From positions 354,372 through 418,371 of the forward strand of contig JALFUR010000004.1 of assembly GCA_022784465.1 (NCBI GenBank): 64,000 bases of DNA. Reading direction: 5' to 3'. Position numbers and translations under genes: made by a program. The stretch's first letter is position 1. Each line of letters opens with the position of its first letter. A model generated the notes under the pieces. The model ran no database searches and was not told the DNA's origin. It saw only the letters and a list, made by a program, of their open reading frames with translations. This stretch comes from Christensenella sp. GTDB lineage: Bacteria > Bacillota > Clostridia > Christensenellales > UBA3700. Shown piece after piece: positions 14,892 through 19,747 of the stretch.

Positions 14892-15413
14892 TTATACAAA
14901 TAAATCTATTATATTTTTTATCAAAAAATTGTATCCTACAACTATTAAAAAATTTTCAACAATAAAACCCATTAAATAAAAAACTAGGTTGAATTTATAA
15001 TTTTTTGTCTTTATTTTTAATACAATAATTGCATAAATTAACATAAAATAAGCCGCAACTATAACAAGCATAGCATGCTTTACATCAAGTTCAATATTTC
15101 CTAGTAGCGAACTAATTTCTATGAACAATAAAAATGCAATATAGATTAGTGTTATAAAAAATATAAAAGTTCTTACTGTATTACATGATGAAACTAGCCT
15201 TTTTTTCTTGTTTTTTATATCTAATTGTTTAGTGGTTGTCTCTTCAATTAAAGTTATATTTTTTGTTGGCGGTGGCGCAAATTCTTTTTTAGAAAAAGTC
15301 TGCCCTGTAAAAATTTTATTTCCACAATTACGGCATTTTAAAATACCATCTACTCTATCTTCAATTTCTAACTGACCACCACATATTTTACAATTAAACA
15401 TCTCCTCTTTCAT
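14892..15413 (-). CDS. Zinc-ribbon membrane protein (N-terminal CxxC-x18-CxxC, 3-4 TM helices)
   Basis: The N-terminus CKICGG...CRNCGN is followed by a Pro-rich linker and hydrophobic helices. Its start overlaps the upstream stop (ATGA). Confidence 0.6.
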   Translation of the reverse strand: MKEEMFNCKICGGQLEIEDRVDGILKCRNCGNKIFTGQTFSKKEFAPPPTKNITLIEETTTKQLDIKNKKKRLVSSCNTVRTFIFFITLIYIAFLLFIEISSLLGNIELDVKHAMLVIVAAYFMLIYAIIVLKIKTKNYKFNLVFYLMGFIVENFLIVVGYNFLIKNIIDLFV

Positions 15414-15985
15414 TCTTTGTTTTCCTCTTTTTCGTCTGGCCCTTTAGTGTTATCTGTATTATTCGTTTCAAAAATAGCCATTAATTTATCTTCAGACAAA
15501 TCTGTAATGCCATATATTTTCGTATTTTCTAAAAACATTTTTTCTACTTCTACAAATGCATCATCCGCTTCTGTTAATATATCTTCAGTCTTTGTTTTTG
15601 TATTTAATAATTCATTAAGATAAATAGCAAGTTCTTTTTGATTTTTCAAATAATCAAAAGAACTAAGCGACTTAACTTTATTAACAATGATATTATCGTC
15701 GATTGCGTCTTTTAATCTATTCGTAAGTTTTATATTATATAAAACAAACATTCCACGCTTAATTAAACGTACTCTTCTATCATTTTCATTAGTAATCTTT
15801 TTAACCAAGAATATTTTGTCATATGTAGTATCTAATTTTTGACCTTCATCTATCATTGTTTTTATTTGTTCTGAAACTACTTTAATCTCGTCTTCGATTA
15901 ATTTTTCTTCTTTTTCTAATGAACAAATAGCATCTACGATTTCTTCTCTATCAATTTTTTCAAATTTTTTTCTTCTAAAGCACAT
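15410..15985 (-). CDS. Helical coiled-coil protein, possible ESCRT-III/PspA-like
   Basis: 191 aa with a basic N-terminus (MCFRRKK), long heptad-like helices and an acidic C-terminal tail. No catalytic motifs. The call is by architecture only. Confidence 0.35.
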   Translation of the reverse strand: MCFRRKKFEKIDREEIVDAICSLEKEEKLIEDEIKVVSEQIKTMIDEGQKLDTTYDKIFLVKKITNENDRRVRLIKRGMFVLYNIKLTNRLKDAIDDNIIVNKVKSLSSFDYLKNQKELAIYLNELLNTKTKTEDILTEADDAFVEVEKMFLENTKIYGITDLSEDKLMAIFETNNTDNTKGPDEKEENKE

Positions 15986-16323
15986 TATCTTAGCTCCTTG
16001 GCGTTTCTTTCTTTAATCCATATGTTGATTATATCAATCTCTTTTTCTATAATTTCACAGCTACTATTTTCGTCTTTTACTAGCATAATCTTTATATCTT
16101 CAATCTTTTGTTTAATTCTCTCATCTATCTTAGTTACTTTAGGATTCTTATAAGGCGATAAATACTGTAATTGATCTTTTATGTTTAATAGTTTTTCTTT
16201 AATATCCTCATCTTTAGACATTGCAATAAGCACGTCTATTTCTTGCGACGATAAAAGTATTAGTTCTCTATCTTCTAAAACAGACATTTCGTTTTCCTCA
16301 TTTTTTCGTTTAAAAAAGCACAT
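15985..16323 (-). CDS. Small helical protein of unknown function (MCFFKRK N-terminus)
   Basis: 112 aa, charged and helical. Its start immediately follows the SPFH stop (TAAATG), with GGAGGA encoded by the SPFH C-terminal Gly-Gly. Its stop overlaps the next start (TAATG). Confidence 0.5.
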   Translation of the reverse strand: MCFFKRKNEENEMSVLEDRELILLSSQEIDVLIAMSKDEDIKEKLLNIKDQLQYLSPYKNPKVTKIDERIKQKIEDIKIMLVKDENSSCEIIEKEIDIINIWIKERNAKELR

Positions 16324-17334
16324 TTATCCTCCTATTTTTGCTCCGCAATGCTTACAGAACATATCTCCTTTATTAACCAATTTATTGCAATTTGGGCACT
16401 TTTCTTTTTGCTTAAGAAGTTCATATCCACAAACAGAACAAAACTTAACTTCTTTAGTTATTTTAGCGCCGCAATTTGGGCACTCTTTATCATCCCCTGT
16501 AGCACCTTTCTTTTTATCTGCTGGCCACCCAACAACTCTGCAAACTTCTAGATATTTTGCATAATCTTCAACCTGCAATCTTCTCAAATCTAATTCTCTA
16601 TTGAAATTAATTTCATCCATTTTCGCTTTATTTTGAGCTTCTTTCATTCCGCGCTCATATTTAGCTTGTTCATTCTTTGCATCAGAGATCTTTTTAATAT
16701 CTTCATCGGTAATTATTATTCGTGAAATAGTGAAAGAAAAAATTTTTAATCCATAATCTGATTCAAACATTTTTTTGACATGAGGCAACAATTCTTTACT
16801 AATAGGAAGCAAAACCTCTCCTAATCTATCATAAGAGAGTTTTTTATCGTTCATTATATTGGCGATTTGAAATTGAACTTCAGCTAATAATCTACCTTGT
16901 AACCTATTTTTTAATTTTTCTGTATCAAATACTTCTTGGCTTCCTATAAGCTCTAAATATGCTTTTCTAGGATTAGAAATTTGCACCTCAAATTCTCCAG
17001 AAGCACCAAGTTTAATACTTACATTAGTAACGGGATCTCTCATTTCCCATTGAGTTGTAGTTCCCCAATAAATATTTAACTTAGCAGTTTTAGAAATAAA
17101 GATTATTTCGATACTTTCAGCATTACCTATTTCTTTAGCAAACTGGGAATGTTTTTTATCAAAGATATAATGTTTACCACTAGATAACGTGTCAAAAGCA
17201 ATACCATCTTTTATAATAATGGCATTATGAGTATCAGGAACAATAATTGCTGTTGAAGAAGAATAATCATCAACAACAATCTTTTTGAACAAAACATCAT
17301 TTTGTTCTTCACATTTAATTAATCGTACAGCCAT
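16324..17334 (-). CDS. SPFH/band-7 family protein of the YdjI (COG4260) type with two C-terminal zinc ribbons
   Basis: The N-terminal pattern LIKCEEQNDVLFKK...AIIVPDTHNAIIIKDG...GKHYI and IIFISKTAKLNIYWGT resemble B. subtilis YdjI as I recall it. The C-terminus has CPNCG..FCSVCG and CPNCN..FCKHCG. I trimmed the start to the ATG at 17334, which follows AAGGAGA. Confidence 0.65.
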   Translation of the reverse strand: MAVRLIKCEEQNDVLFKKIVVDDYSSSTAIIVPDTHNAIIIKDGIAFDTLSSGKHYIFDKKHSQFAKEIGNAESIEIIFISKTAKLNIYWGTTTQWEMRDPVTNVSIKLGASGEFEVQISNPRKAYLELIGSQEVFDTEKLKNRLQGRLLAEVQFQIANIMNDKKLSYDRLGEVLLPISKELLPHVKKMFESDYGLKIFSFTISRIIITDEDIKKISDAKNEQAKYERGMKEAQNKAKMDEINFNRELDLRRLQVEDYAKYLEVCRVVGWPADKKKGATGDDKECPNCGAKITKEVKFCSVCGYELLKQKEKCPNCNKLVNKGDMFCKHCGAKIGG

Positions 17335-17439
17335 ATATGTTCTCCTTAACATATTAATAGCTTCTTCGATCTGCCCTATTTTTCCCTAGAAAGTGCAAAT
17401 GCACAAAAATTTTCTTACTAGTTAAATAGTATTTAATTT

Positions 17440-18582
17440 CTATTTTTTTGTCAATATCTGGGAAAAATAATCAAATAATCCTTTCTTTTGAATTTCTTTG
17501 CATGTTAAAACATTCACTTTTTCAACATTATCTCCTGTTTTAACTTCAATATATCCAATATTCTGATTCATCAAAAATGGTGCTTCTATATCTTTTGAAT
17601 AGTTATATTGAACATCAGATATTAATTCATTTTCTTTATATAATAAAGAAACATCTTTATCTACATATACGTTTACTTGATTTTCTTTTCCTTTAATTAC
17701 ATTTACTTGATCAATTACTTCATTTTTTCTATAAAGCAATTTTGTAGAATAAGTTGAAAATGCGCGATTAAATAAACTTATAGCTGCATTGAATCTATCA
17801 TCAGAAGACTCTCCTCCAATTACTGTACTAATAACTTTAAAATCATCTTTTTTAGCACCTGCTGAAATACAGAATCCTGCTTCATTTGTATATCCAGTTT
17901 TAGCGCATATACATTTGTTATATCGTTTTAATAATTTATTTGTATTGGTAATTCTTGTAATTCTTCCTGATGGATGAACAAAATCCTCATACCAAATTTT
18001 TGCATAATCGTAGTATTTATCATGTTCCATTAGTTTTTTTGTCGCAATATTTACATCAAAAGCAGTAGAATATTGTTCTTTATTAGAAGGTAAACCTGTA
18101 GAATTTGCAAATAAAGTATTATTCATTCCATATTCTTTAGCTTTATTATTCATTAAATTAATAAAAGAATTTATATCTCCAGAAATTCTTTCTCCTATCG
18201 CATATGCAGCATCATTTGCAGAACATACCACAATACCTTTAATCAAATCTGAAACTTTGTAAGAAGTATTTTTATCTAAAAACATTTGGCTACCACCCAT
18301 TGAAGCAGCATTATCTGAAATATAAACTTCCTCATCTAAAGAAATTGTATTTTTTTCTAATTCTTCAAAAAATATATTTAATGTCATGATTTTAACCATG
18401 CTACCAATTTCATGTTTTTTATGTTCGTTTTTTGCATACAAAATTAATCCAGAAGAATAATCTGAAACACAATATGAAAAACATTTCTCTTCAATAGCTT
18501 CTTCAGCAAAAATTGCATTTACTGGAAATAATAAATATGAAATTAAAAATACCAACAAAAATATAAATATAGATTTTTTCAT
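17440..18582 (-). CDS. D-alanyl-D-alanine carboxypeptidase (second S11 paralogue)
   Basis: Signal/TM segment, then GSMVKIMT (SxxK), SAND(SxN) and KTGYT motifs. Confidence 0.8.
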   Translation of the reverse strand: MKKSIFIFLLVFLISYLLFPVNAIFAEEAIEEKCFSYCVSDYSSGLILYAKNEHKKHEIGSMVKIMTLNIFFEELEKNTISLDEEVYISDNAASMGGSQMFLDKNTSYKVSDLIKGIVVCSANDAAYAIGERISGDINSFINLMNNKAKEYGMNNTLFANSTGLPSNKEQYSTAFDVNIATKKLMEHDKYYDYAKIWYEDFVHPSGRITRITNTNKLLKRYNKCICAKTGYTNEAGFCISAGAKKDDFKVISTVIGGESSDDRFNAAISLFNRAFSTYSTKLLYRKNEVIDQVNVIKGKENQVNVYVDKDVSLLYKENELISDVQYNYSKDIEAPFLMNQNIGYIEVKTGDNVEKVNVLTCKEIQKKGLFDYFSQILTKK

Positions 18583-19144: not shown

Positions 19145-19747
19145 ATGATTCATAATATACATATAAGATTATTTTATTATTTTAAGCAATGTTGCATTTG
19201 CATAAAGAATAACAAACGTCTTTTATTTTGGTATTTATTTTTGTTCGCTTTTGGTGTCATCATAAGCGCTTTAATTTACAAAGATTTTTCCTGCGAAGAT
19301 TCTTCTGGATTATTTTTATCTTGCATTATCCAAGGCGAATATAGTTATATAAAATGCTTCTTTAGATTTTTACTTATATGCCTTTTAGGTTCTATAATCA
19401 GTATATTATCCTGCGTTTTAAAATGCTTTAGATTCTTTAGATGTTTATACCCTATTTTTCTTGGACTTATTTGCTATAAGATTATTTTGCTAGAAATACT
19501 ATGCTCTACTTTACTTGGAATCTTATCTGTTTGCATTTTTATTCTTCCAGCATTTTCTATATTACTATTTTCTTTTTTAATGAATTCTATATACGTAAAT
19601 CCGTATCTAAATTGTTACAAATCAGCCATTGTTGGATGTAATTTTAAAAATATTTTGCTTTTTCATGCAAAATTTTTGCTTCTAATTTGCCCTAGTTTGT
19701 TATTTTTAATTGTTTTATTACCATTTATACTTTCACTGTTTTTCTAA
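19145..19747 (+). CDS. Cys-rich polytopic membrane protein of unknown function (weak SpoIIM-like look)
   Basis: 200 aa with about 5-6 TM helices and 16 Cys. No Shine-Dalgarno before the ATG, so the start is uncertain. It is one of only two plus-strand genes. Confidence 0.4.
   Translation: MIHNIHIRLFYYFKQCCICIKNNKRLLFWYLFLFAFGVIISALIYKDFSCEDSSGLFLSCIIQGEYSYIKCFFRFLLICLLGSIISILSCVLKCFRFFRCLYPIFLGLICYKIILLEILCSTLLGILSVCIFILPAFSILLFSFLMNSIYVNPYLNCYKSAIVGCNFKNILLFHAKFLLLICPSLLFLIVLLPFILSLFF

Follow-up and report, generated by a model that had tools for sequence, protein, structure and literature searches.

A four-gene SPFH operon of Christensenella sp. as a possible reduced form of a bacterial ESCRT-III/Vps4-like membrane module

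A 64,000-nucleotide (nt) stretch of a Christensenella sp. genome (GenBank assembly GCA_022784465.1, contig JALFUR010000004.1, positions 354,372 to 418,371), hereafter the window, carries four head-to-tail, translationally coupled open reading frames (ORFs) on its minus strand at window positions 14892-17334. In order, they encode a soluble YdjI/SamI-type SPFH protein (g1, 16324-17334, 336 amino acids, aa), a charged protein of an unannotated family (g2, 15985-16323, 112 aa), a helical protein of another unannotated family (g3, 15410-15985, 191 aa) and a zinc-ribbon membrane protein (g4, 14892-15413, 173 aa). We propose, with a probability of roughly 0.5, that these proteins form a sub-membrane scaffold that works like PspA-YdjI and represents a reduced, ATPase-less form of a bacterial SPFH/ESCRT-III-like/Vps4-like module. 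The proposal builds on related loci in uncultured Clostridia, where, in most lineages, the first three genes are followed by genes for a Snf7-family protein and a Vps4-like ATPase. A preliminary description of this DNA had pointed to an uncharacterised membrane module around a YdjI-type SPFH protein; it was right in spirit and is partly supported, and relatives of the operon look like a bacterial ESCRT-III/Vps4 system.

Relatives of the operon in uncultured Clostridia

The four-gene set is co-conserved in its short form, g1-g2-g3-g4, across eight distinct lineages, which all carry it at a single housekeeping locus. The same gene order with overlapping or abutting junctions recurs in loci L001/2, L005/6 and L007-L011, and an identical g3 protein was found on at least 23 contigs in housekeeping surroundings. 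This locus runs ftsK, recA ... rny, dac, the operon, ilvBN, lysA, an M50 protease gene and scpAB, with no mobile or defence genes nearby.

Longer forms of the locus accompany the more distant g3 homologues, in deeper-branching relatives. In L012, L015, L016, L018, L019/20, L024/25 and L026/27, the genes g1, g2 and g3 are followed by a gene for a protein of ~195 aa, here called B, and by a gene for an ATPase. Locus L003/4 has no B and runs g1, g2, g3, a 475-aa AAA ATPase, a BrxL-like ATPase and g4. In L013/14, B is followed, in the place of the ATPase, by a 641-aa protein with tetratricopeptide repeats (TPR) and a C-terminal FtsK_gamma/Csa3-like DNA-binding domain (L013, 4464-14071); a leucine-rich repeat protein comes next, and phage-type integrases on both sides of L013 suggest mobility. 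Orthologues of g1 head every related locus and positional orthologues of g2, which align well, are present in all of them, while g4 orthologues occur in all short-form loci and at the operon end in L003. Throughout, g3 has g1 and g2 beside it. In some lineages the long forms lie at unrelated positions, next to relA/dtd (L018), ABC transporter/MarR genes (L024) or gcpE (L016), and several consist of the five core genes only (L016, L031-L034, L039-L048 and L061).

The linkage between g3 and B was also recovered from the other direction. Using B alone, 38 metagenome loci were fetched, 33 of which had enough upstream sequence to be informative, and g3 lay upstream of B in 32 of these 33. The full g1-g2-g3 order was present in 25 of the B-fetched loci, and an ATPase gene lay downstream in 25. 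Some loci are abundant, with one member indexed in 211 blocks of the collection. The sole informative locus without g1, g2 or g3 upstream (L063, 2424-3095) came from another sample series (Ga0102854) and encodes a distant B-like protein (35% identical); the Snf7-like family may therefore extend beyond the module.

B proteins are ~40% identical to one another and form at least 279 clusters, from uncultured Clostridia. Snf7 (PF03357) was the top Pfam family for B members, scoring 28.2 bits for L059 (cut-off 27.3) and 26.1 bits for L015, and it was matched by four of 31 members. For B, AlphaFold2 produced a model of modest quality, with a predicted local distance difference test score (pLDDT) of 61. 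Its ten best Foldseek matches in the PDB all belong to the ESCRT-III superfamily (CHMP1B, CdvB, Vipp1 and Asgard ESCRT-IIIB), at E-values of 0.025-0.38, none of them ≤0.001, and the B profile found no ESCRT-III match among PDB sequences. Near its C-terminus B has an ...ELE.LRKKI motif, which we take to resemble a MIM1.

The long-form ATPase belongs to the classical AAA proteins and combines MIT-like, AAA and Vps4_C domains. Vps4_C scored above its cut-off in four of these ATPases (22.9-27.4 against 21.3), and Vps4 was the best single-AAA match in the PDB. The two best PDB matches of the N-terminal profile were MIT domains (2mpk, E = 0.014; 2w2u, the Sulfolobus Vps4 MIT domain, E = 0.4), with the Pfam MIT model itself sub-threshold at 16.6 bits. 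By sequence, then, B is a Snf7-family protein and the ATPase is Vps4-like. A 710-aa product in L019 (4073-6205) merges the Vps4-like AAA domain with a complete RuvB (RuvB_N, lid and RuvB_C); the merger may stem from read-through or faulty assembly, or ruvB may lie directly downstream in that lineage.

In a neighbour-joining tree of g3 (midpoint-rooted, no support values), the short forms make up one derived clade, sister to L003 and nested within the long forms. This topology suggests that the window form arose by reduction, with B lost first and the ATPase second, and the window operon is most simply read as a reduced form without the Snf7-like gene and the ATPase. The ORF list places no further gene in the window operon; an AAA gene is absent from it, and the sole weak AAA match within the 64-kb window is RuvB. 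Homologues of g3 and B were found neither in phage records nor in IMG/VR, and the only match to g1 in the plasmid search was one distant SPFH gene. On these searches, a phage, plasmid or viral origin is not supported.

Several long forms carry additional genes. An extra gene of ~117 aa, TPR-like by eye and not present in the window, lies between g2 and g3 in L026 (7026-7379), and gaps of ~350 nt between g2 and g3 in L032, L034, L039-L044, L048 and L054 were read as the same gene. In L018 the ATPase gene is followed by genes for an FHA protein, a PP2C phosphatase and a Ser/Thr kinase, recalling phosphorylation-linked archaeal ESCRT loci. The accessory genes of many long forms (L024, 3574-16421; L012, 1414-11854; L026, 5836-13376) encode giant proteins of 747-1352 aa with a zinc ribbon, TPR, TIR_2, a membrane helix and GLUG repeats, beside a zinc-ribbon/trypsin-like protease. 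The short BrxL-like ATPase has BrxL_N and BrxL_ATPase domains and no Lon protease domain. Together the giants, the protease and the BrxL-like ATPase look like a sensor/effector layer, possibly for defence.

The g3 family and its relation to ESCRT-III

Neither g2 nor g3 matched a family in Pfam, NCBIfam, PADLOC, PHROGs or PDB sequences, with best Pfam E-values of ~0.01, all to unrelated families. The preliminary description was therefore correct that the two middle genes fit no known family, and also that there is no recognisable pspA, as PspA_IM30 gave no match to g2 or g3 even at E-values up to 1. It had also called both proteins all-helical and free of motifs. The helical character was upheld for g3 by its AlphaFold2 model and is predicted for g2 from its sequence alone; the absence of motifs did not hold, as both proteins have conserved motifs, including an N-terminal one that they share.

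We found 51 close homologues of g3, and its profile retrieved 97 clusters (at the 50% identity level) from 1.8 billion representatives, 68 of them at E ≤ 1e-10. Full-length members of the family are mostly ~190-215 aa. In the window, g3 starts with the motif MCFRRKK (nt 15962-15985) and has an acidic tail. The conserved blocks are YNI.L...LKDAIDD, DQK.LA.FLN, EDvLT.ADD and IYG..DD.LLA.FE, the last forming a conserved C-terminal helix, IYG..(E/D)D.L(L/M)A.FE, at ~nt 15461-15499 in the window.

The AlphaFold2 model of g3 shows a long alpha1/alpha2 hairpin (aa 13-107) followed by three shorter helices, the five helices spanning residues 13-50, 54-107, 116-126, 134-157 and 165-178. Its pLDDT is 68 overall and 80-90 over hairpin residues 11-90. 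The helices correspond in order and length to those of the B model (7-48, 52-110, 112-146, 159-174 and 180-198). In a Foldseek search of the PDB with the g3 model, CHMP2A/3 ranked fourth, CHMP1B sixth and Asgard ESCRT-IIIB ninth, with TM-scores of 0.43-0.50 for CHMP2A/3 and Asgard ESCRT-IIIB and a best E-value of only 0.36, and a giant-virus Snf7 protein ranked second in BFVD (E = 0.097).

With alignments of 75 g3 and 65 B sequences, hhalign matched the two families over 164 collinear columns from end to end (score 27.9, P = 0.0023), taking in the N-terminal motif, the hairpin tip and the C-terminal helix. Single-reversed controls scored 15.5 and 16.4, and 0, 2 and 4 of 100 block shuffles reached 27.9 at block sizes 7, 14 and 25, respectively. 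A hidden Markov model of g3 gave no match to B proteins. When the g3 and B profiles were aligned with an approximate human CHMP4B sequence, only short, non-significant alignments resulted; the one between the IYG..DD.LLA.FE stretch of g3 and GFGEEFDEDELMAELEE of CHMP4B (E = 0.07) is likewise short and non-significant, and serves as a lead only.

Other features tie g3 to the remaining components of the module. The N-termini of g2, g3 and B share the pattern M-[G/C/W]-[L/F]-F-K-x-K (in g2 and g3, M-[C/G/W]-[F/L]-F-K/R-K/R), which we take to be like the MGLFGK-type N-termini of CHMP proteins. Two natural fusions join g3 to its neighbours. The 309-aa protein P0096 (L018, 7001-7930; GCA_028748545.1), found on four contigs, combines g2 and g3, and in the 361-aa protein P0065 a proline-rich linker joins a g3 homologue to a beta-rich domain, which is homologous to the domain at the C-terminus of the ATPase. 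This C-terminal-type domain of Vps4-like ATPases gives weak Pfam DUF7862 matches. On the sequence and model comparisons above, g3 is likely, at about two chances in three, to be a very divergent ESCRT-III paralogue, an assignment that is unproven.

The small protein g2

Conserved motifs in g2 comprise the N-terminal MCFFKRK, a Y-x-S-P loop, an ID.KI..K..DLKL stretch and a C-terminal ERNAKE. It evolves faster than g3, and a word-seeded search returned just three close homologues. In L024 (4652-5065) and L026 (6637-7029), the short MCFKKKK motif of g2 is replaced by a transmembrane helix (MPVYVYVIIGAAAGAVIGLIVSLL... and MYVYIAIAVIIVGLAIFFLV..., respectively), and because such a helix can take its place, the N-terminal motif is read as a probable membrane anchor. 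Within the window clade, g2 and g3 invariably begin with Met-Cys. This start was considered as a modification site and rejected; as this position is C, G or W across the wider families, it is read instead as part of the hydrophobic-basic membrane motif. The possibility that g2 is a truncated g3 paralogue was ruled out (BLASTP E = 0.69; 18 columns only in hhalign), and comparison of g2 with B gave no signal.

The SPFH protein and the membrane protein

The preliminary description of g1 as a YdjI-type SPFH protein ending in two zinc ribbons was borne out. The protein matches Pfam Band_7_1 (PF13421) with 43.5 bits (cut-off 24, E = 3.8e-11) over ~aa 74-217 (nt 16684-17115) and the general Band_7 model with 14 bits. 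A coiled-coil linker follows the Band_7_1 core and leads to two C-terminal CxxC..CxxC ribbons, with cysteines at 285/288/299/302 (nt 16417-16488) and 313/316/327/330 (nt 16333-16404), which are matched by Zn_Ribbon_1 (51.8 bits) and DZR (36.6 bits). A hydrophobic-window check found no hydrophobic segment in g1.

The protein encoded by g4, which had been described as an N-terminal zinc ribbon fused to membrane helices, proved to have that architecture. Its single CxxC..CxxC ribbon (Cys 8/11/27/30, ~nt 15315-15398), for which all Pfam ribbon matches are weak and sub-threshold, would be cytoplasmic in the topology proposed here. A PPP/basic linker with a KNKKKR stretch connects it to three hydrophobic stretches at ~aa 77-109, 109-136 and 141-173 (~nt 14895-15185).

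Ratios of nonsynonymous to synonymous substitution rates (dN/dS) were estimated against L005, where dS exceeds 1 and the values are rough. They are ~0.08 for g1 and g3, which by this measure are under purifying selection, and ~0.3 for g4, the fastest-evolving of the four genes; dS was saturated for g2.

Operon structure and flanking sequence

The window sequence confirmed the preliminary description of four linked minus-strand genes that lie between ilvBN and dac and are joined by coupled junctions. We place the g1 start at the ATG at 17334, because an AAGGAG lies 7 nt before it and the orthologues align from that residue; the alternative ATG at 17352, from which the ORF finder begins, has no ribosome-binding site (RBS). 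The g1/g2 junction is TAAATG, and the RBS of g2 is, as had been noted, encoded by the last two Gly codons of g1 directly before its stop codon (GGAGGA, minus strand, 16327-16332, within AAA ATA GGA GGA TAA ATG). Genes g2 and g3 overlap by 1 nt (TAATG, with an AAGGAG upstream), and g3 and g4 by 4 nt (ATGA).

A consensus scan found a candidate sigma-70-type promoter, TTGACA-17 nt-TACTAT, on the minus strand at 17426-17454, with 10 of 12 positions matching and overlapping the 3' end of dac. Promoter-like sites in this region are not above shuffled expectation, and the candidate is no evidence of function. The terminator search returned a single terminator-like hairpin, inside g1 and at chance level, and an Rfam scan around the operon found no element. 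The neighbours of the operon are ilvB, ilvN and a lysA-type decarboxylase gene, together with genes for an S11 D-Ala-D-Ala carboxypeptidase (dac) and RNase Y. Between dac and rny, on the strand opposite to its neighbours, lies a 200-aa Cys-rich, very hydrophobic ORF (19145-19747, plus strand). It has no Pfam family, gene callers retain it in identical contigs (L021, 6240-6842), and a 196-aa counterpart adjoins rny in L003.

Comparison with known systems

In Bacillus subtilis, the soluble SPFH protein SamI (YdjI) is recruited by two membrane proteins, SamG and SamH, and SamI then brings PspA to the membrane. The window operon resembles pspA-ydjGHI (samGHI) in that g1 has the YdjI/SamI architecture of a soluble Band_7_1 SPFH protein with a C-terminal zinc ribbon, and in that its gene stands with one for a zinc-ribbon membrane protein; the proposed g3 would correspond to PspA, the ESCRT-III-superfamily member of the Bacillus system. 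The preliminary description had gone further and called the operon a PspA-YdjGHI-like module, a label that we do not retain. The window has no PspA_IM30 protein, g3 being a separate unannotated family, and none of the four proteins matches the TPM domain that characterises YdjH. YdjG has two zinc ribbons, an NTF2-like domain and one membrane helix (PMC11237479), whereas g4, compared with it by description, has one ribbon, a short linker and about three membrane helices, although it may be a functional analogue. The window also has the extra small protein g2, its gene order is reversed with the SPFH gene first, and its relatives carry a Snf7-type protein and a Vps4-like ATPase, unlike the Bacillus system.

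Because the relatives encode a Snf7-family protein and a Vps4-like ATPase, the closest parallel is not the Bacillus Psp system but an ESCRT-III/Vps4 module of archaeal type that has an SPFH-zinc-ribbon partner. Archaeal Meth_adaptin ESCRT loci encode a protein with SPFH, coiled-coil and zinc-ribbon regions (Makarova et al., 2024; PMC11188069), and the long forms similarly place one or two ESCRT-III-type proteins beside a MIT-AAA Vps4 ATPase and an SPFH-coiled-coil-zinc-ribbon protein. The FHA, kinase and phosphatase genes of L018 are also reminiscent of the archaeal 'Main' and 'Halo_FHA' systems. However, the hosts here are bacteria (uncultured Clostridia), no archaeal counterpart of g2 or g3 has been described, and the window form has neither a Vps4 nor a Snf7-like gene. 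The loci also showed no adaptin-appendage, winged-helix (ESCRT-II-like), GOLD or ProX components.

Likeness to eukaryotic and Asgard ESCRT-III lies in the N-terminal hydrophobic-basic motif, the alpha1/alpha2 hairpin followed by shorter helices, the acidic tail, the two different subunits side by side and, in the relatives, an ATPase with MIT and Vps4_C domains. By contrast, neither sequence nor fold searches gave g3 a significant match, links to ESCRT-I, ESCRT-II or ubiquitin are absent, and the window has no ATPase. Flotillin/NfeD operons (YuaG-YuaF and YqiK-YqiJ) also pair an SPFH protein with a small membrane partner and are thought to organise membrane regions, but g1 is soluble and of the Band_7_1 subfamily, no NfeD-type partner is encoded, and two extra helical proteins are present.

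ESCRT-III/Vps4 machinery is usually said to be confined to archaea and eukaryotes. Bacteria have been stated to lack a Vps4-like ATPase, their ESCRT-III relatives being PspA and Vipp1 (PMC11188069; PMC7619361). Ravi et al. reported that bacterial pairings of Snf7 with AAA+ proteins are only sporadic, and that Vps4-like genes have been transferred into bacteria with snf7 replaced by another gene (PMC11237479). A full-text literature search returned no description of a Clostridial SPFH, Snf7 and Vps4 module, and although absence there is no proof of unpublished status, a bacterial gene set of this composition is apparently undescribed.

Alternative explanations

A number of results weigh against reading the operon as a reduced ESCRT-III-like module. 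Its window form includes neither a Snf7-like gene nor a Vps4-like ATPase. None of 58 g3-family members matches Snf7 or PspA_IM30 in Pfam, and a search of PDB sequences with the g3 profile returned no ESCRT-III chain. Foldseek with the g3 model reached E-values of 0.36 in the PDB and 0.07 in BFVD at best, none significant, and the match lists also hold unrelated helical bundles such as syntaxins, designed bundles and BAR-like proteins; the model itself is moderate only, with pLDDT below 60 across most of the C-terminal half. For the g3-B alignment the hhalign probability is only 12%, and with smaller alignments the score falls within the block-shuffled range. The profile comparisons leave g2 unplaced relative to both g3 and B, and defence-type genes (BrxL-like ATPase, TIR giants and trypsin-like protease) occur in many long forms.

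On another reading, g2 and g3 have nothing to do with ESCRT-III and are lineage-specific coiled-coil adaptors or regulators of the SPFH protein, akin to NfeD/YdjH-type partners. They might determine how large the SPFH assembly grows or where it forms, or join it to g4, and the hairpin likeness would be generic. The lack of any significant ESCRT-III or PspA match by sequence or structure, the weak g3-B score, the miscellaneous Foldseek matches and the isolation of g2 all favour such adaptors, as does the persistence of g1-g2-g3 together where B and the ATPase are absent. Yet nearly all long-form loci place g3 next to genes for a Snf7-family protein and a Vps4-like ATPase, the alignment of g3 with B is full-length, collinear and above the single-reversed and most block-shuffled controls, and the N-terminal motif is common to g2, g3 and B. 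The fusion of one g3 homologue to the ATPase C-terminal domain is likewise hard to fit to an adaptor, and the literature describes paired ESCRT-III paralogues beside Vps4 as the norm in archaeal systems. We therefore consider the adaptor explanation improbable.

A defence origin is also unlikely, if slightly less so. Under this explanation the module would be an anti-phage or conflict system, or a descendant of one. Its long-form core, with the TIR giants, the protease and the BrxL-like ATPase, would sense phage and respond at the membrane, and the window genes would be a remnant or a minimal membrane-protecting arm. The BrxL-like ATPase (633 bits to PADLOC BrxL) is present in L003/4, L012, L024/25, L047, L053 and L059, TIR_2 proteins of 747-1352 aa are encoded in or beside the operon, and PADLOC models of proteases recognise the zinc-ribbon/trypsin-like protease. 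Gene sets of this kind are characteristic of defence systems. L013 and L026 have integrases at their flanks, and the accessory genes differ among lineages in the manner typical of defence islands. The long-form ATPase, too, matches PADLOC IetA with 138 bits; this match covers the AAA core only, about as well as the Pfam AAA model does, and was thus judged to be generic AAA similarity, so that the ATPase was not taken for an IetA defence ATPase. Neither g1-g4 (at E < 0.01) nor B has a PADLOC match, however. Moreover, the short form occupies a fixed housekeeping locus in eight lineages without mobile or defence neighbours, strong purifying selection on g1 and g3 is a poor fit to a decaying remnant, several long forms consist of the five core genes alone, and relatives of g3 and B are missing from the phage and IMG/VR collections. 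For the window, defence ranks below membrane maintenance because of the missing core PADLOC match, the fixed locus, the core-only long forms and the lack of phage or plasmid relatives; for the family as a whole, a defence role is conceivable.

An operon for cell division, chromosome partition or sporulation-type membrane fission is very improbable. The locus does lie near ftsK, scpA/scpB, dac and an M50 protease gene, a TPR and FtsK_gamma protein follows B in L013/14, and ESCRT-III is described in the literature as driving division in some archaea; but the module occupies unrelated loci in L018, L024 and L016, and no ftsZ or division genes lie within the operon. The neighbourhood in the window is presumably the ordinary conserved Firmicutes backbone, corresponding to the lysA-scpAB-dacB region of Bacillus.

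Proposed mechanism and significance

A role in membrane integrity or remodelling, as suggested in the preliminary description, remains our best reading of the window operon, and we infer it, together with the membrane binding, polymerisation and partner contacts on which it depends. In the reduced-module scheme, g4 would be the docking site or receptor, embedded in the membrane and with a cytoplasmic zinc ribbon, and g1, a soluble SPFH oligomer with two ribbons, would be the scaffold recruited to it, in parallel with the recruitment of SamI (YdjI) by SamG and SamH. Both g2 and g3 may attach to the inner leaflet via their short N-terminal hydrophobic-basic motif. Polymerisation of g3 on the membrane could then stabilise, seal or reshape stressed membrane, in much the way that PspA acts after YdjI.

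In the long form, taken as ancestral, the genes after g3 encode a Snf7-family subunit and the MIT-like/AAA/Vps4_C ATPase, which presumably remodel or disassemble the polymer. The window lineage would have lost the Snf7-like subunit and the ATPase, so that turnover of its polymer would be passive or would depend on another factor. The C-terminal helix of g3 is kept in the ATPase-less form, which suggests that it probably serves subunit packing or partner binding, and not only ATPase recruitment.

A bolder version of this proposal, which we advance tentatively and rate at somewhat below even odds, is that uncultured gut Clostridia hold genuine ESCRT machinery. It would comprise a Snf7 subunit, a MIT-Vps4-type ATPase, an SPFH-zinc-ribbon scaffold and the new core subunits g2 and g3, with g3 as a second, extremely divergent ESCRT-III paralogue, and would carry out ATP-driven membrane remodelling or scission. 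The core found in the window would persist and work without the ATPase, anchored by g4.

If the reduced-module proposal is right, the g2 and g3 families would be additions to the ESCRT-III/SPFH membrane toolkit, and a link between SPFH proteins and ESCRT-III polymers that is suspected to be ancient would become testable in bacteria. TIR, BrxL-like and protease genes frequently accompany the module, which may therefore also have a role in defence at the membrane. The series of loci, from the full set through those without the Snf7-like gene to those without both it and the ATPase, would amount to a natural experiment on how an ESCRT-III-like core works with and without its ATPase.

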